From Poseidonia sp. (lineage in GTDB: Archaea > Thermoplasmatota > Poseidoniia > Poseidoniales > Poseidoniaceae), in NCBI GenBank assembly GCA_965661285.1, contig CBFIDD010000002.1, forward strand, positions 128,001 to 192,000: a stretch of DNA of 64,000 nt, written 5' to 3'. A program made the translations under genes and the position numbers. This document shows positions 1-41,841 of the stretch, piece by piece; position 1 is the first letter of the stretch; each line of letters starts with the position of its first letter. A model generated the notes under the pieces. It was not told the origin of the DNA. It saw only the letters and a list, made by a program, of their open reading frames with translations, and searched no databases.

Positions 1-44
1 CCTGTTTTTGGGGTAGGCGGTCTAGTCTTTGAACTTGAGGGAGG

Positions 45-533
45 CTACCATTCGGTTTGCTCAAACTCAGACCCTTCAACCCAAGCCAGCAAATCAAGGG
101 CAACAACACACGACTCTGCCACTTCCGGCAAGGGGTCATTGACGAATTTTTGTAGCGTCGGCACCACACTTCGGTCGCCAATGGCTCCCATGGCTTCTGC
201 AGCTTCGTGTCGAACCATCACGTGTTCCTCATCGTCTTCAAGGCGGTCAACGAGCGTGGGCAGCGCTGCAGGGTTTTGCATCTGGCCAAGTACGTAGGCG
301 ATTTCGTGTCGTAAGAGCGCACTTTGACTCGAGAAGCCCTGACAGAGCGCTAAGCAAGCCTCTTCGGTTCGTTGATTCCGAAGTGCAAAGACAGCTCGCA
401 TGCGCTGAAACATCGGTTGGCTTTCATCGCACAACTGTTCGGTGAGCGTGTCCAAGACAGCAATTTGGGATGGGGGCGCTGGATCAACCGAGCCGTACTG
501 GCTCACTTGTGGTTTTCGTTCACTTGGCGTCAT
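45..533 (-). CDS. Deoxyhypusine hydroxylase-like HEAT-repeat protein (half-size, two His-Glu motifs)
   Basis: RMRAVFALRN, SALLRHEIAYVLGQMQ, MVRHEAAEAMGAIG and EVAESCVVALD match one dyad half of eukaryotic DOHH. Start overlaps the mqnD stop (ATGA). Confidence 0.8.
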   Translation of the reverse strand: MTPSERKPQVSQYGSVDPAPPSQIAVLDTLTEQLCDESQPMFQRMRAVFALRNQRTEEACLALCQGFSSQSALLRHEIAYVLGQMQNPAALPTLVDRLEDDEEHVMVRHEAAEAMGAIGDRSVVPTLQKFVNDPLPEVAESCVVALDLLAWVEGSEFEQTEW

Positions 534-1423
534 GGTTCATCCTCTGGCGCGCCGATGAATTTCATGGTGCTTGTGTCAAAATCACCTCGGATTAAGCCGA
601 GGTCTTGACCTTCTTTGATGAAACGTCGGATGGAGGCTCTTCCTTCCTCACGATAGTCAATGGTACGGTCGTTGACGTACATGCCAACAAATTCCTTGTT
701 CGTGTCGTCATCGATGCCTCGGCCCCATGCCTTTGCAAATTCCAAGGCCTCATCGGGTGATTTGAGTGCGTATTCAATGCTCATTTTGGTGTACATCGTG
801 ATGTCCTCCATCACCTTGTCGCCAAGATCACGCCGGACAACGTTTCCGCCGAGTGGCATCGGCCAGTTTGGTGTCCTGGCATTCCACCATTTTCCGAGGT
901 CTATGAGAACATCAAGGTCATGGTCAACATAGGTCAACTGACCCTCGTGAATGATGAGGCCGCTGAGGTATGTACCGTCAAGAATTCGCGGGATAATCTC
1001 ATCAAAAGGAACGACCGCAACCTCGCAGTCTCCCCAAGCCAGACGCAGGCCGAGATATGCACTTGTTTTCATGCCGGGGACGGCGATGGTGTGGCTTCTC
1101 GCTTCATCCTCTGTGACGCCGCTTTTGCAAACGATCATCGGACCGTATCCCTCGCCCATCGAAGCGCCGCAGTTCATCAGAGCATAATGTTCAGCGATGT
1201 CGGGAAAAGCATGAATAGAAACAGCCGAGACCTCGAGGTCTTGGTTCATGGCCCGGTGATTCAATGTCTCAATGTCTTGGAGTTCGTGAACAAAGTTGTA
1301 TCCCGGTGTAGGAAATGCGCCGGTGGTCATGGCGTGAAACATGAAGGCATCATCGGGGTCGGGACTGTGGCCGATTCGCACGATTTTATTGCCCGCTTCG
1401 TCGAGAGGAAGTTCAGCCACCAT
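530..1423 (-). CDS. mqnD: 1,4-dihydroxy-6-naphthoate synthase (futalosine pathway)
   Basis: GHSPDPDDAFMF, DIETLN, SMGEGYGP, IIHEGQLTY, PLGGN and MYVN motifs. Start trimmed to ATG at 1423. Confidence 0.9.
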   Translation of the reverse strand: MVAELPLDEAGNKIVRIGHSPDPDDAFMFHAMTTGAFPTPGYNFVHELQDIETLNHRAMNQDLEVSAVSIHAFPDIAEHYALMNCGASMGEGYGPMIVCKSGVTEDEARSHTIAVPGMKTSAYLGLRLAWGDCEVAVVPFDEIIPRILDGTYLSGLIIHEGQLTYVDHDLDVLIDLGKWWNARTPNWPMPLGGNVVRRDLGDKVMEDITMYTKMSIEYALKSPDEALEFAKAWGRGIDDDTNKEFVGMYVNDRTIDYREEGRASIRRFIKEGQDLGLIRGDFDTSTMKFIGAPEDEP

Positions 1424-1484
1424 GATTCCAACCACCGGTATGCCCTTCAAGAACATTCGTTTGGTCAGGCCATCAATGACTGTA

Positions 1485-2282
1485 TCAGTTCCACGCGAAT
1501 TGCGGCGTTGAATCCATGCCACATGCTGATTTCAAAAACCGGAACAAACCGTCCAGATGATGTTGATTGAGACGGTTAAACACCTCGCCATAATACTGGT
1601 CCAATCGTTCGTAGGTAAGACCTGATTTTTCCATGGACCACTGAATCACAGCCTCGCGCTTTGCGGCTTGAGATTCAAAGCCCTCAAGATTCGAAAGAAG
1701 GGCTGCATGTGCACGCTGAAGGGCCTCGATTGGCGTGTCTTTTCGGGCGACAAAAACGCCGAAAATCATCGGCAATCCCTCTTGTTGCATCCATGCAGTG
1801 CCAAGGTCCATTTGAACCATCTCGGGAAACTCGCGGGCGGCTTCAAGTGCGCGATCTCCGATGAGCAACGCACCATCGGCGATCTTCATCATGGAGTCGT
1901 AATCCGGACCCATGGAGACATAGTTCATCGCCCTCCCTTGTTGTGAGATGAGATGTTTCAGCAACGCCACCGATGTGGCTGAATCGCTGGGTAGCGCAAT
2001 GGTCTGCATCTTTGAGAGCGGGACGGCGCCGAAGAGGAGCACGCTCCCGACTTCGCCTTGGCTCCCGATGCCGATATCAGGCAAGAGGACCAATTCATTG
2101 GCGTGCTTGGCGTAGTCTGCTGCGGGTATGGGTGCCAGAATGCAATCTCTGCGAAGAACGTGGCCGGTGAGCCAAGACGGTGGGGCGGACAAGACCTTCC
2201 AACGTGTGTCGAGTTTGTGATACAACGGGTCGCAATTGATGAACGCCACCCGTCCGAGCGTGTTCGTCCAAGTATCAGCCAT
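1485..2282 (-). CDS. mqnA: Chorismate dehydratase (futalosine pathway)
   Basis: GRVAFINCDPL, GEVGSVLL, SATSVAL, LLIGDRAL, DLGTAW and LPMIFGVF motifs; lies between mqnE and mqnD. Confidence 0.9.
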   Translation of the reverse strand: MADTWTNTLGRVAFINCDPLYHKLDTRWKVLSAPPSWLTGHVLRRDCILAPIPAADYAKHANELVLLPDIGIGSQGEVGSVLLFGAVPLSKMQTIALPSDSATSVALLKHLISQQGRAMNYVSMGPDYDSMMKIADGALLIGDRALEAAREFPEMVQMDLGTAWMQQEGLPMIFGVFVARKDTPIEALQRAHAALLSNLEGFESQAAKREAVIQWSMEKSGLTYERLDQYYGEVFNRLNQHHLDGLFRFLKSACGMDSTPQFAWN

Positions 2283-2287
2283 GCGTA

Positions 2288-3499
2288 TCATCCTTGGGCC
2301 ATTGGCAGGGTGCGTCGTGTAGGCGGTGGTGGTGGCGTGTATTCCTCAAATTGTGAATACGTGGTGTTTCGCTGAATGGGTGAGCATCCAGCATCGTAAA
2401 TCAGGCGTGAAAGTTTGGTGCGGTCGTGGTCAAGGGGGGCTGTCGAACCTGCCAAATGCATGATGGATTCCTTCTGAACCGTACCGTCGATATCATCCGC
2501 CCCAAATTGGAGGGCCAACTCGGCAAGATGATCGCCGATGTTCATGCGATAAGCCTTGATGTGCGGTATGTTGTTCAACATCAAGCGAGAAACGGCGATG
2601 GTGCGGAGCACTTCTGTTCCGGTCGCTAACTGCGCTTCGGGGAGTCGCGTATGGTCGGGCAGGAACGGGTAGGGCACGAAACATTGGAATCCACGGGTTT
2701 CTTCATTGAGAGAGCGCAGGGAAATCATGTGTTGGAGGCGCTGTTCAAGATGTTCGATTGTGCCAAAAAGCATGGTGCAATTTGATGGCAGTCCGACCTC
2801 GTGAGCCTCTCGATGAATCTGGAGGTATTCATTAGAACTTTCTTTTCCGTTACAGATGTGTGCCCGCACCTCGTCATCGAGAATCTCTGCACCGCCACCC
2901 GGCAAAGACGTCAAACCTGCTGCTTTGAGACGGGTGAGAACTTCCTTTGTTGAAATGGAGGATTTCTGTGAGAGATGTTTGATTTCAACAGCGGTAAGGG
3001 CTTTGATGGAAATGTGCGGAAATTTCTCTTTGGTTGCTGCAAAAAGCCCTTCGTAGTGTTCCACACCCCAATCGGGGTGAAGGCCTCCCACAGAGTGAAC
3101 TTCGTCAACAGCGTGAGCGTATTGGTCCAAGTCGGCAAGGTATTGCTCAACCGACATGGCGTAGGCATCATCGGCTTTTGGACCGCGGCGAAACGCGCAG
3201 AACTTACACGCTAAGACACAGATGTTCGTCTGGTTGACGTGGACGTTGGAGTTGAAAAATGCGCGCAAGCCAAATCGAGCTTTGCGGACACAGTGAGCAA
3301 GCGCACCGAGTTCATGGAGGTCTGGATGTGTGTAGAGTATCATACCATCAGCAAGGCTAAGCGGCTCATTTCGGACCAATTTCTCAACGATGGGTTGGAG
3401 CGCAGGCGACCATGATGTTGATGCGATGTTTTCGGCAAGGTTGTCAAGCCAGTGCGCGGCTTCACCAGCAAGCGGTGCAGGCTGGAGAGAAGGAGCCAT
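2288..3499 (-). CDS. mqnE: Aminofutalosine synthase, radical SAM (MqnE; CofH/MqnC family)
   Basis: NQTNICVLACKFCAF (CX3CX2C), VGGLHP, SLPGGGAEI and HIKAY; mqn gene context. Confidence 0.8.
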   Translation of the reverse strand: MAPSLQPAPLAGEAAHWLDNLAENIASTSWSPALQPIVEKLVRNEPLSLADGMILYTHPDLHELGALAHCVRKARFGLRAFFNSNVHVNQTNICVLACKFCAFRRGPKADDAYAMSVEQYLADLDQYAHAVDEVHSVGGLHPDWGVEHYEGLFAATKEKFPHISIKALTAVEIKHLSQKSSISTKEVLTRLKAAGLTSLPGGGAEILDDEVRAHICNGKESSNEYLQIHREAHEVGLPSNCTMLFGTIEHLEQRLQHMISLRSLNEETRGFQCFVPYPFLPDHTRLPEAQLATGTEVLRTIAVSRLMLNNIPHIKAYRMNIGDHLAELALQFGADDIDGTVQKESIMHLAGSTAPLDHDRTKLSRLIYDAGCSPIQRNTTYSQFEEYTPPPPPTRRTLPMAQG

Positions 3500-3544
3500 G
3501 ATAGCGCCTCGGGGAATTCATTCAAGAAGATGTGCTTTCATCCG

Positions 3545-6439
3545 TCAACGACGGCGAACGGCAAAGAAACCTGATTTCGCGATAAATTTCCTGAACTCCT
3601 CGATGATGAACACGCTTGACGCCATGAGCACGATGATGCCCCAATCGCTTTGCGATAATGGATTGGTACGCAGGAGCGATCCGACTTCAATGCCCAGCAC
3701 AGGGATGGTCATCTCGGCAAGCTGCACAAAGAACAGGAGGAGGCCAGTGGAAATCAGCAGGGCATATGTGATGGCAGGATTTGAAAAGACGCCGAGTTCA
3801 AAGACGCTCTCTTCGTTGGACCGGCAGTTCATCACATTGAACAACTGATACACGATGAACACCGCGAACGTCATGGTCTGGGCGTGCTGGAAATGACCAT
3901 CGGCGTAGTTCTGCCAATCTTCAATCGCTGCTGGGTTCCCGTTTTCACACGCTGCAACATCAAACGCCGTCGTCGTGGTCTGGGATGGGAGCAATTCGCA
4001 CTGTGCATCCGGATTGGCCAGCCCCCCGCCACCGAGCCAGAAGATCATCAAGGACCCGATGACCATGACGATACCGAGGTAGAAAATCAACGAAATGTCT
4101 CGACCGTTGGGTAAACCCTCGTCCACGGGTCGTGGGGGTCGTTCCATCACGTTCCCGTGTTTCTTTTCCACCCCAAGCGCTACAGCCGGTGGGCCGTCCA
4201 TGAGGATGTTGATAACCAAAATTTGCGTTGCCGTAAGGGGTAATGCTTCGGGACCGAAAAACAAAGTTGCCAATACGAGAAGCGAGACCGCCGCCACATT
4301 GGTCGAAACCTGGTATCTAACAAAGTTTCGAATGTTTTGGTAAATTTTCCGGCCTTCCTCCACAGCGTGAACGATGTTGGCGAAGTTATCGTCTTGAAGC
4401 ACCATGTCGGCGGCATCTTTCGCCACATCAGTACCGGCAATCCCCATCGCAATGCCGATGTTCGCTCCGGATAGAGCGGGAGCATCGTTCACGCCATCGC
4501 CGGTCATGGCGACGATCTCACCTTGTTCTTGCAACGAGGAAACAATCCGCATTTTCTGGTCGGGCGTGACACGAGAGTAAACGGAAACGCCACCAGAGAC
4601 GGACACGAGTTCCTCATCACTCAACGCTGCGAGCTTCTTTCCGTCGAGGGAGGACGTTGATGCAATGTTCAATTCGGATGCAATGGCCGCCGCCGTCATC
4701 TTTTGGTCGCCCGTGATCATCTTTACCTTGATACCCGCTCGCTGACAGGTTTCAATGGCCGCTTTGACCTCTGGCCGTGGAGGGTCCATGATACCAACGA
4801 GGCCGAGGAAAATAAGATTCGATTCCATGGCGTTGATGTCCGTGATGTCCTCCCCGTCTTCGACCTTCCGCGCAAAGAGAGCGATGATACGCATCGCTTG
4901 GGAGCCCATTTCTTTGTTCATCGAGGATATCTGCTTCTTGTCTTCCTCGGTGAGGGGTACAACGGTATTGTCGACGATTTTGGATGTTGCCATCGACTTA
5001 AACCCACCAGCACTCCCCTTTGCAAAGACCCACTGAGCGCCCTCGTACTCGTGGACGACACTCATCCGCTTTCGTACAGAATCAAAGAAGAATTCATGTA
5101 GACGAGGGTGGCGATAACTGAATTTCTTCACATCCCCGTTAATTTTCCATCCTGCCACGGCGCATGCAGAATCGGTTGGGTCGCCAATGGCCTGCCATTG
5201 GCCCTCGGATTTGACGATGTTCGAATTGTGGCAAAGCGCAAGGCAAGACCCTAACAATCGGAAATTAAGGTCTGCTTGCCGGGATTGGAGGTCCTCATCC
5301 GTGAGGATAACCCCGTTTCGAATGAGGGTCCCTTCGGGATCGAATCCCTCGCCGGTGATGCCAAAGTTTCGCTGAAGGGTCTGAATCTCCCGCACCGTCA
5401 TCTGATTTTTCGTCAACGTACCGGTTTTATCCGAACAAATCACCGTGGTTGAACCCAACGTTTCAACCGCTTTCATGCGCCGAATGATGGCTTTATGTCG
5501 GGCCATGTTGCGCATTCCCAGGGAGAGCGTGATGACCAAAATGATGGGCAGGCCTTCGGGGACGATGGCGACAAAAATCGAAATCGCAATGATGAATTGT
5601 TGCACGAGCACTTCTTTGAGATCAACACCCGGTTTGCCATAGGACACGATAACATAGAGCGAGACGATGAGAACGGCGACGACCAGCGCGATGACACCGA
5701 GAAACTTTCCGAGGCTCTCGAGTTTCAACTCCAGCGGCGTCTTCGGTGTTTGCGCTTCCGCGATGTTGCTTGCGATTTTACCGAGTTCGGTTTTCATACC
5801 TGTGGCAACCACCAAACCAAGGCCTCTTCCGGAGGAGACCGTCGTTCCCATGAACGCCATGTTGCTTCGTTCAGCAAGGAGGGTTTCTGCCGGCAAAGCC
5901 TCGGTCGATTTTCGAATGGTCAGCGACTCACCGGTCAAGGCCGATTCATCGATTTTACACTGTTGAGACTGAAGGAGGCGAACGTCCGCAGGAACATTGA
6001 GTCCGGGTTCAAGACGAACGACGTCGCCGGGGACGAGTTCTGAAGTTGGAATTTCGTTTTCGTAATCGCCACGAATAACGACGCAATTTGAAACCGACAT
6101 TTGTTTGAGCGAATCCATGGCTTGTTCGGCTTGATTCTCCTGCCAGTATCCAAAAAATGCGTTGGCCGTCAGCACGATAAAGATGAAAATTGCATCACCG
6201 GGATGGTCTGGATTGATGATCAAAGCGATGAGGGCAGCCCCCATCAGAAGATAGTTCAGCGGGTCGTTGTACTGAGAGAGAAATCGAAGAAAAGCGGATG
6301 TTTTCTCCGCCTCGTCCAGTTTGTTATCGCCAAAACGTCGGCGTCGCTTTGAGATCTCATCGGGAGCTAGCCCGTTCTTTGTTGACGCTTGAGCGACAAG
6401 GCTGTCCTCAACAGAGAGGTTATGCCAGTAATCCTCCAT
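3545..6439 (-). CDS. P-type IIA cation (Ca2+/Mn2+) transporting ATPase
   Basis: TGES, PEGL, DKTGTLT, MITGD and GDGVND motifs; 10-TM pattern. Start trimmed to MEDYW. Confidence 0.92.
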   Translation of the reverse strand: MEDYWHNLSVEDSLVAQASTKNGLAPDEISKRRRRFGDNKLDEAEKTSAFLRFLSQYNDPLNYLLMGAALIALIINPDHPGDAIFIFIVLTANAFFGYWQENQAEQAMDSLKQMSVSNCVVIRGDYENEIPTSELVPGDVVRLEPGLNVPADVRLLQSQQCKIDESALTGESLTIRKSTEALPAETLLAERSNMAFMGTTVSSGRGLGLVVATGMKTELGKIASNIAEAQTPKTPLELKLESLGKFLGVIALVVAVLIVSLYVIVSYGKPGVDLKEVLVQQFIIAISIFVAIVPEGLPIILVITLSLGMRNMARHKAIIRRMKAVETLGSTTVICSDKTGTLTKNQMTVREIQTLQRNFGITGEGFDPEGTLIRNGVILTDEDLQSRQADLNFRLLGSCLALCHNSNIVKSEGQWQAIGDPTDSACAVAGWKINGDVKKFSYRHPRLHEFFFDSVRKRMSVVHEYEGAQWVFAKGSAGGFKSMATSKIVDNTVVPLTEEDKKQISSMNKEMGSQAMRIIALFARKVEDGEDITDINAMESNLIFLGLVGIMDPPRPEVKAAIETCQRAGIKVKMITGDQKMTAAAIASELNIASTSSLDGKKLAALSDEELVSVSGGVSVYSRVTPDQKMRIVSSLQEQGEIVAMTGDGVNDAPALSGANIGIAMGIAGTDVAKDAADMVLQDDNFANIVHAVEEGRKIYQNIRNFVRYQVSTNVAAVSLLVLATLFFGPEALPLTATQILVINILMDGPPAVALGVEKKHGNVMERPPRPVDEGLPNGRDISLIFYLGIVMVIGSLMIFWLGGGGLANPDAQCELLPSQTTTTAFDVAACENGNPAAIEDWQNYADGHFQHAQTMTFAVFIVYQLFNVMNCRSNEESVFELGVFSNPAITYALLISTGLLLFFVQLAEMTIPVLGIEVGSLLRTNPLSQSDWGIIVLMASSVFIIEEFRKFIAKSGFFAVRRR

Positions 6440-6594
6440 CAAAACCAATCCACCCCTCAATAGAGTATTGAGGCAAAACGAAGCAGAAATATGCCGCATA
6501 TTAGTTTGATGGACAAAATCCCATGGATAATAAGTGCCAGACGAAGTGAAACACACATCGTAGGCTATACCTACTGGGACGAATTGGAGCGAGC

Positions 6595-40527: not shown

Positions 40528-40529
40528 CG

Positions 40530-40601
40530 TGCAGGCGCCGGGAGTTGAACCCGGGTAGAGAGGTTGGGAACCTCCCATCATAACCACTAGATCACGCCTG
40601 C
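40530..40601 (-). tRNA. tRNA-Gly(CCC)
   Basis: Cloverleaf: GCAGGCG/CGCCTGC acceptor, anticodon arm GGAGG-TTCCCAA-CCTCT, T arm CCGGG-TTCAACT-CCCGG. CCA not encoded. Confidence 0.95.
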
Positions 40602-41768: not shown

Positions 41769-41769
41769 G

Positions 41770-41841
41770 CGCCCCTGCCGCGATTCGAACGCGGGTTCCT
41801 GGCTCCGGAGGCCGGGGTGATATCCACTACACTACAGGGGC
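41770..41841 (-). tRNA. tRNA-Arg(CCG)
   Basis: Cloverleaf: GCCCCTG/CAGGGGC acceptor, anticodon loop CTCCGGA, T arm CCGCG-TTCGAAT-CGCGG. Confidence 0.93.

Follow-up and report, generated by a model that had tools for sequence, protein, structure and literature searches.

Deoxyhypusine hydroxylase (DOHH) of eukaryotes, represented by the human enzyme (PDB 4d4z), yeast Lia1 and Drosophila nero, is a single chain of about 300 amino acids with eight HEAT repeats, in which two four-repeat units pack face to face and hold four His-Glu motifs between them. In the human enzyme the iron ligands are H56, H89, E90, H207, H240 and E241, and the same source describes DOHH as 'absent from archaea and bacteria' (passages in PMC3306375). 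The passages on archaea in three papers report deoxyhypusine synthase (DHS) and no DOHH homologue in these organisms (PMC3306375, PMC5178350, PMC7773846), which agrees with the view of the preliminary description of the DNA analysed here that no archaeal DOHH is established. This stated lack raises two questions: whether, and by what means, hydroxylation of deoxyhypusine takes place in archaea, and what the origin of the eukaryotic enzyme is. Here we describe a gene at the start of a 64,000-nucleotide stretch of a Poseidonia genome (the window) that encodes a half-size DOHH homologue of 162 amino acids, referred to below as half-DOHH. A conserved homologue of this kind, present in abundant marine archaea, brings both questions within reach of experiment, and the protein is small and probably soluble.

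The half-size gene is already labelled in databases. NCBI names close homologues 'HEAT repeat domain-containing protein', and JGI/IMG and the ESM Atlas carry the automatic label 'deoxyhypusine monooxygenase'. We found no paper describing or analysing the archaeal form. In the full-text literature, whose coverage leaves out subscription journals, no paper joined hypusine with Marine Group II or Poseidoni, and the combination of hypusin with Thermoplasmat returned an unrelated review only. Nothing relevant was found there on DOHH-like, DOHH homologue or K06072, or on DOHH together with Asgard or Thaumarchaeota.

A half-size DOHH homologue in Poseidonia

Four segments had been singled out in the preliminary description, and all of them are present in the minus-strand open reading frame (ORF) at 45-533: RAVFALRN at residues 46-53, RHEIAYVLGQMQ at 75-86, MVRHEAAEAMGAIG at 106-119 and ESCVVALD at 140-147. 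According to the AlphaFold2 model and the alignment, the protein is one four-HEAT-repeat unit of eight helices with two His-Glu motifs. When all PDB chains were searched with phmmer, the top match was human DOHH (4d4z, E 2.3e-70), and both of its halves were matched, with 130.7 bits to chain residues 143-293 and 110.4 bits to residues 12-138. The best matches outside DOHH were designed alphaRep HEAT proteins, with about 37 bits as the highest score of any one stretch. The identity to named eukaryotic DOHHs from animals, fungi and protists was 42-58% among the best 120 longer proteins; all 120 were eukaryote-type DOHH, and this search is uninformative on the frequency of fusions with mqnD, the neighbouring gene in the window. 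A profile made from the archaeal halves scored about 100-200 bits with each eukaryotic DOHH half versus 19-59 bits with segments of giant generic HEAT proteins.

The alignment of 60 archaeal homologues (alignment A1) has 21 invariant columns, and H76, E77, H109, E110, G83, Q84, E113, D17 and P18 are the same in all 60 sequences. In the HMMER alignment to 4d4z, the pairs H76/E77 and H109/E110 align with the His-Glu pairs of both human halves, which we numbered H56/E57, H89/E90, H207/E208 and H240/E241 from the five-residue tag offset in the 4d4z chain. The counterparts of the named iron ligands, H76, H109 and E110, are thus kept in 60 of 60 archaeal sequences. Gly63/Gly214 and Glu57/Glu208 of human DOHH are needed for substrate binding. 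Ten residues (F49, S71, L73, H76, E77, Q84, H109, E110, E113 and C142) are found at a frequency of at least 85% in two archaeal groups and in both eukaryotic halves, and they are not the consensus of the generic HEAT outgroup. We refer to them as family-specific residues.

The fold gave the same picture. The AlphaFold2 monomer model has a predicted local distance difference test score (pLDDT) of 88.8 and a predicted TM-score (pTM) of 0.83. Foldseek aligned it to the C-half of 4d4z with a TM-score of 0.84-0.86, a root-mean-square deviation (rmsd) of 2.2 and 50% identity, and VIA-align placed model residues 6-154 on 4d4z chain residues 134-285 with a Z-score of 22.1 and an rmsd of 1.9 over 149 residues. 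The alphaReps reached a TM-score of about 0.66 with Foldseek and a Z-score of about 18 at an rmsd of about 5 with VIA-align. Since both sequence and fold match 4d4z, the 162-amino-acid protein is a true DOHH relative made of one four-repeat unit and not an eight-repeat dyad. The proposal that the protein corresponds to exactly half of a eukaryote-type DOHH, with two His-Glu motifs, therefore held, and that this archaeon encodes a true half-size homologue of DOHH is near certain. The archaeal nature of the host, also part of the preliminary description, was confirmed by a full-length small-subunit ribosomal RNA (1456 bits to the archaeal model) and by a match to the aIF5A model of 100.8 bits, above the cut-off of 75.45 that was passed by only the four archaeal genomes among the controls.

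The archaeal and the eukaryotic proteins share the HEAT fold, the His-Glu motifs on the iron-ligand positions and a (Y/F)xSVDPAPP motif ahead of a four-repeat unit. In the predicted archaeal homodimer, two four-repeat units would be placed face to face with the His-Glu motifs between them, as in the eukaryotic chain. They differ in that the eukaryotic chain has about 300 amino acids, eight repeats and four motifs, whereas the archaeal one has 162 amino acids, four repeats and two motifs, is found in an archaeon and is coupled to mqnD in one order. With a half-size chain and two His-Glu motifs, the active site must form between two chains and must be symmetric. Half-DOHH is thus a member of the DOHH lineage that lacks the defining single-chain architecture of eight repeats and four motifs, and if it works as an enzyme it must be a homodimer.

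The gene is under purifying selection, judging from within-genus comparisons with a median ratio of nonsynonymous to synonymous substitution rates (dN/dS) of 0.07; synonymous sites were saturated in most of these pairs, and the value was obtained from 24 of 78 pairs, those in which dS was below 3. The host genome has 1.98 Mb in 8 contigs, is 93% complete and holds a single DOHH-like gene; the window is positions 128001-192000 of its contig C2. Where sources give names for the near-identical 162-amino-acid homologues, these are Poseidonia or Poseidoniales (Marine Group II).

Predicted homodimer and substrate pathway

Two copies of the protein were modelled with ESMFold2 on alignment A1, with two Fe riding along, in three runs with three controls. 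The homodimer score was 0.89 (median of 0.88, 0.89 and 0.92) versus 0.00 for the best control, and in a calibration made without ligand a score this high was obtained for 20 of 30 solved one-chain pairs and for 1 of 23 solved single chains. The homodimer runs had at least 96% of the contacts in common and a partner pLDDT of at least 92. The predicted interface is symmetric, it is formed by H76, H109, G83, Q84, E113, M106 and residues 6-21, and it contains seven of the ten family-specific residues. A contact between the two M106 residues marks the two-fold axis of the predicted dimer. In the model, the interface has the appearance expected of a di-iron site rebuilt between two chains, which would also offer a reason for the conserved N-terminal arm. 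The suggestion made from the sequence alone, that a homodimer could bring the His-Glu motifs together, is in line with this prediction, and a homodimer with a shared di-iron site is likely as a prediction.

We then turn to the substrate. The host aIF5A has 131 amino acids and the loop SKSKPGKHGSAKA, from which Lys37 is the lysine expected to be modified; the target-lysine loop was read as SKPGKHGSAK. Two DHS homologues (PF01916) are encoded in the genome, with scores of 297.5 and 140.9 bits. The substrate pathway, aIF5A with the target lysine plus DHS, is thus present in the genome that bears half-DOHH. The weaker-scoring PF01916 gene may be a paralogue with another role in polyamine transfer.

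We consider a homodimeric di-iron hydroxylase acting on aIF5A the most probable function of half-DOHH and hold this view with moderate confidence. Two identical subunits would pack face to face, like the N- and C-halves of eukaryotic DOHH, with the N-terminal tail of each subunit lying across its partner. Each subunit would bind one iron through His76, His109 and Glu110, and the di-iron centre would sit on the two-fold axis of the dimer. DHS would build deoxyhypusine on Lys37 of aIF5A, and the di-iron centre together with O2 would hydroxylate the deoxyhypusine side chain into hypusine. Iron binding, oxygen chemistry and the identity of the substrate are all part of what we infer here. If half-DOHH is active in this way, a symmetric homodimer interface can house a di-iron oxygenase site of the kind that was later confined to one chain in eukaryotes, and hypusine, beyond deoxyhypusine, is predicted in Poseidoniales.

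Several points weigh against this function. For every member of the family it comes from sequence and structure prediction. The dimer score may reflect the model's memory of solved human DOHH, which has the same packing within one chain; given the likeness to 4d4z and the ligand-free calibration, we take the dimer result as support for the likeness and not as proof of dimerisation. Hypusine in Sulfolobus is not explained by the half-size family. Furthermore, 49 of 201 Poseidoniales genomes, near-complete ones among them, are without half-DOHH, and a gene missing from about a quarter of the genomes is dispensable. No neighbourhood, either in the loci inside Poseidoniales or in those outside, ties half-DOHH to DHS or aIF5A, and in Poseidoniales the gene is coupled to mqnD instead. 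Finally, early amino-acid analyses found mainly deoxyhypusine and not hypusine in Euryarchaeota, including 'thermoplasmales' (PMC5178350, in the passage on these analyses). As far as this passage says, no member of the archaeal families that bear half-DOHH was among the Euryarchaeota analysed. The mostly deoxyhypusine found in 'thermoplasmales' fits the absence of the gene from genomes like those of family f35 (families are given here by our own f-numbers), and it says nothing on Poseidoniales.

Distribution and origin of the half-size family

Half-DOHH is conserved across the order. In Poseidoniales it was found in 152 of 201 sampled genomes at E <= 1e-20 (83/99 in f1, 2/2 in f2 and 66/99 in f3), and 42 of the 61 genomes that are at least 90% complete carry it. 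A sample of the whole phylum gave 109 of 401 genomes, with 51/57 in f1, 23/37 in f3, 18/19 in f29, 7/9 in f10, 3/3 in f26, 2/6 in f28, 1/1 in f18 and single genomes in f33, f34 and f48. In the same 401-genome sample the gene was not found in f4 (0/10), which is the only other family in the class of Poseidoniales, nor in f5 (0/14), f6 (0/48), f16 (0/53), f19 (0/24) and f35. Every archaeal homologue examined was half-size. Long ORFs in the loci L027, L030, L036, L039, L042 and L043 were considered as fusions and rejected as Arg/Pro-rich read-through in GC-rich DNA.

Half-DOHH was restricted to families with haem-copper oxidase. Subunit I of this oxidase was detected in every family with half-DOHH (f1 56/57, f3 34/37, f10 8/9, f18 1/1, f26 3/3, f28 6/6, f29 17/19, and the f33, f34 and f48 genomes), and when the counts for gene and oxidase were compared, 32 of the 34 half-DOHH genomes outside Poseidoniales had it. 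The oxidase is missing from f5, f6, f16 and f19, which are also without half-DOHH, and it is present without half-DOHH in f4, f22, f23 and f35. Since relatives are not independent, we treat this co-occurrence as a pattern only. It fits an O2-dependent enzyme.

A pattern scan of 185,579 prokaryotic species, with one genome per species and narrow patterns, returned 402 relatives, of which the best 80 are described here. Their labels are Thermoplasmata, Thermoplasmatota, Poseidoniales, 'Euryarchaeota', 'Methanobacteriota' and 'Halobacteriales', and three are bacterial. Two of the bacterial ones, L092 (Yoonia sp.) and L110 (Rhodobiaceae bacterium), have the Poseidoniales gene order and are probably archaeal contigs mis-binned in bacterial metagenome-assembled genomes. 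The third, L065, is labelled Proteobacteria and holds a half-DOHH copy of the ArchB type defined below. Among 1.84 billion protein representatives, 483 matched at E <= 1e-30. If giant repeat proteins are set aside, the top matches were proteins of about 300 amino acids matched in two stretches at 45-51% identity, together with one half-size representative of 159 amino acids. Eight of the representatives of about 300 amino acids were looked up, and those with a record were eukaryotic or JGI 'deoxyhypusine monooxygenase'. The ESM Atlas also contains HEAT_PBS clusters of 164-170 amino acids from Bathyarchaeota and Nitrososphaerota with a feature score of 0.96, which may be half-size relatives or generic HEAT proteins.

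The relation between the archaeal proteins and the two eukaryotic halves was analysed in a tree of 104 rows and 129 core columns under LG+C20+F+G4, with the tail and the linker excluded. The rows were 39 of 58 archaeal sequences (near-duplicates removed), both halves, N and C, of 29 out of 83 well-behaved eukaryotic representatives, and seven four-repeat segments of generic HEAT proteins as the outgroup. Four groups were obtained: the eukaryotic C-halves (support 100/98), the N-halves (80/92), ArchA with Poseidoniales and f29 (98/97), and ArchB, which loosely unites the remaining families (88/19). These groups were joined by weak branches (48/74 and 50/84), and the outgroup placed the root between ArchB and the rest, on long branches. 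Approximately unbiased (AU) tests rejected neither a single clade of all archaea (p 0.376), nor the union of eukaryotic N- and C-halves (p 0.443), nor the union of ArchA with the C-halves (p 0.354), where the ArchA group had been named after viewing the tree. The preliminary description had also offered half-DOHH as a pre-duplication relative of DOHH, and this idea is neither supported nor rejected by the half-wise tree and the three AU tests.

Three other features bear on the origin. The mean core identity was 44.9% between ArchA and the C-halves and 42.4% between ArchA and the N-halves, while the N- and C-halves shared 36.5%, or 37.6% within one protein, which puts the archaeal form close to the middle of the family. 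N- and C-halves are told apart by only three columns at 60% consensus, and the archaeal proteins are N-like at L74 and G119 and C-like at S141. All 58 archaeal proteins have (Y/F)xSVDPAPP in front of the repeat unit, and the shorter pattern DP[AST]P was likewise present in the N-terminal tail of all 58. In the eukaryotic proteins a DP[AST]P motif lies in the linker between the halves in 71 of 83 cases and in the N-terminal leader in 1 of 83. A recent transfer of a crown-eukaryote C-half to archaea is not favoured: the C- and N-halves form their own clades, and no archaeal row falls inside either. The core identities, the N/C column pattern and the placement of SVDPAPP likewise make such a recent capture unlikely.

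An ancestral single-unit form with an arm, which was duplicated and fused in the eukaryotic stem, would explain these sequence data simply. A very early transfer of one half is also conceivable. We put forward, tentatively and as the less probable outcome, a fuller version of the single-unit account. The archaeal proteins would be the surviving single-unit DOHH, a homodimeric di-iron hydroxylase by which aerobic Thermoplasmatota form true hypusine on their aIF5A, and the eukaryotic enzyme would have arisen from such an archaeal gene by tandem duplication and fusion, with the SVDPAPP arm of the second copy becoming the linker. If this is true, half-DOHH would be the first DOHH from an archaeon, and it would illustrate an oxygenase active site with its beginnings in a homodimer interface.

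Linkage to mqnD and alternative functions

In the window, half-DOHH follows, on the same strand, a P-type cation ATPase gene and MqnE-, MqnA- and MqnD-like genes, in this order (530-6556, minus strand; Table 1). The TGA stop of the mqnD-like gene overlaps the ATG of half-DOHH by 4 bases (ATGA). The gene set for the futalosine route of menaquinone synthesis seems complete when the distant MqnC-like gene is counted.

Table 1. Positions of half-DOHH, its motifs and related genes (window positions unless a contig, C1 or C2, is given)
Feature	Position	Strand	Remarks
Half-size DOHH homologue gene	45..533	-	ATG at 533, coding 48-533, TAG stop 45-47; 162 aa
N-terminal tail motif SVDPAPP	471..491	-	residues 15-21; also the inter-half linker motif of eukaryotic DOHH
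First His-Glu motif, H76-E77	303..308	-	CAC GAA on the minus strand
Second His-Glu motif, H109-E110	204..209	-	CAC GAA on the minus strand
mqnD-like gene (PF02621)	530..1522	-	330 aa; Pfam VitK2_biosynth 209.9 bits
mqnA-like gene (PF02621)	1485..2291	-	268 aa; Pfam 162 bits
Radical-SAM gene nearest MqnE (aminofutalosine synthase)	2288..3499	-	403 aa; TIGR03700 417.1 bits, just under the cut-off of 434.55
P-type cation ATPase gene	3545-6556	-	same strand as the Mqn-like genes
MqnC-like radical-SAM gene	C2:52267-53322		elsewhere on the same contig
DHS-family gene	C1:449207-450118	-	PF01916 match
DHS-family gene	C1:364697-365602	-	PF01916 match

The linkage is a stable feature of the order. In 36 of 38 Poseidoniales loci, half-DOHH is the immediate 3' neighbour of mqnD on the same strand; in one further locus the two are fused (L046), and in one no mqnD is nearby (L056, family f2). 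The pair is kept while mqnA and mqnE switch strand or sit 2.3 kb away. Among the best 80 loci of the species scan, 58 show the adjacency, some of them likely from the same genomes as the 38-locus set. The fused ORF, L046:4983-6365 on the minus strand in family f3, has 460 amino acids, with an MqnD-like part at about 1-295 in frame with a half-DOHH unit at 304-455. It comes from a single metagenome-assembled genome; a genuine Rosetta-stone fusion and an assembly or sequencing error are both possible explanations.

Despite this adjacency within Poseidoniales, the two genes do not occur together across lineages. Half-DOHH is found without any mqnD-like gene in f29 (18/19 versus 0/19), f26 (3/3 versus 0/3) and f28 (2/6 versus 0/6), and in f10 both are present on separate contigs. 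Conversely, mqnD occurs without half-DOHH in f35, and mqnD was kept, and half-DOHH not found, in several f3 genomes and in six of genus g2. Outside Poseidoniales we saw no Mqn gene within 5 kb in 20 loci, and the 127 ORFs of 21 loci had varied functions, with no DHS, aIF5A or quinone operon among them. Peptidase_M28 and PurH recur beside half-DOHH in f29. Genome G061 has the mqnE-mqnA ... mqnD-half-DOHH region twice, on separate contigs (L053 and L054), with 54-56% identity to the window protein; the region may be truly duplicated, or the bin may contain two strains.

The preliminary description was silent on the mqnD linkage, which raises a rival reading. Half-DOHH might work together with MqnD in the futalosine route, as an O2-dependent iron subunit or partner acting on a naphthoate or quinone intermediate or as a stabiliser of MqnD, and have nothing to do with aIF5A. 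Such a role would account for the constant position behind mqnD, the overlap of the two genes, the persistence of the pair when mqnA and mqnE move, the adjacency in the species scan and the in-frame fusion. The only fusion could be a sequencing error, however, and the lineages that have one gene without the other or both unlinked, as well as the loci outside the order, speak against a shared task. The identity of 45-55% to eukaryotic DOHH and the presence of all signature residues argue for the same job as in eukaryotes, and to our knowledge the futalosine route needs no hydroxylation after MqnD. We therefore regard a role with MqnD as improbable. The linkage looks like an old, order-specific operon that may group O2-dependent functions, which is no proof of a shared pathway; it stands as an unexplained extra and could point to co-regulation of such functions.

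Somewhat more credible, if still unlikely, is an iron oxygenase of the DOHH lineage, homodimeric or monomeric and mononuclear, with another substrate, for instance a free polyamine or some other modified lysine. The conservation of metal ligands and fold is compatible with this, the substrate side of our assignment being a matter of inference; many relatives do without the gene, its surroundings give no connection to DHS or aIF5A, and the predominance of deoxyhypusine reported in Euryarchaeota points the same way (PMC5178350, same passage). On the other hand, eIF5A is the only known substrate of the eukaryotic family according to the passages on DOHH in PMC3306375 and PMC9117371, and the residues of the concave face near the His-Glu motifs, G83 and Q84 included, are invariant and identical to the eukaryotic ones. 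We see very little room for a non-catalytic scaffold of the HEAT-repeat or PBS-lyase type. Pfam finds generic repeat families only in the protein (HEAT_2 with 63.7 bits, HEAT_PBS with 60.3 bits, HEAT_EZ and HEAT), and the NCBI name is equally generic. Generic HEAT_PBS and alphaRep proteins (e.g. 3ltj and MTH187, 1te4) share the repeat type and the helical solenoid, but their identity to half-DOHH is 25-30%, and neither the His-Glu pairs nor the ten family-specific residues are found in them. The phycobilin lyases CpcE/CpcF, CpeY and NblB also have HEAT_PBS repeats, and 5n3u gave a weak match (34 bits, Z 13.4), but their conserved residues are different and the archaeal host is, by context, without phycobilisomes. 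None of the NCBIfam phycobilin-lyase models was reached (30.9 bits versus a cut-off of 300, 24.9 versus 600 and 23.8 versus 330). The His-Glu motifs are invariant in the archaeal proteins, the outgroup has other residues at these columns, and a branch of 1.64 with support 92/90 splits off the generic HEAT proteins. Clustering with generic PBS-lyase HEAT proteins, which had been named as the result that would speak against a DOHH relative, was thus looked for and not seen. A homodimeric hydroxylase of aIF5A remains the function that we favour.

A few other features of the region were recorded. A scan for promoters and terminators in window positions 1-3800 gave counts at the shuffle level and is uninformative for an archaeon. 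The sole RNA families found in the window were tRNA-Gly(CCC) at 40529-40601 and tRNA-Arg(CCG) at 41769-41841, both on the minus strand. About 310 bases downstream of half-DOHH, just beyond the window start, an ORF of at least 394 amino acids lies on the same strand (L001:2-1183, minus). It carries a DLDGDH motif and resembles the small subunit of DNA primase, and a PF01896 primase gene also adjoins half-DOHH in locus L056.

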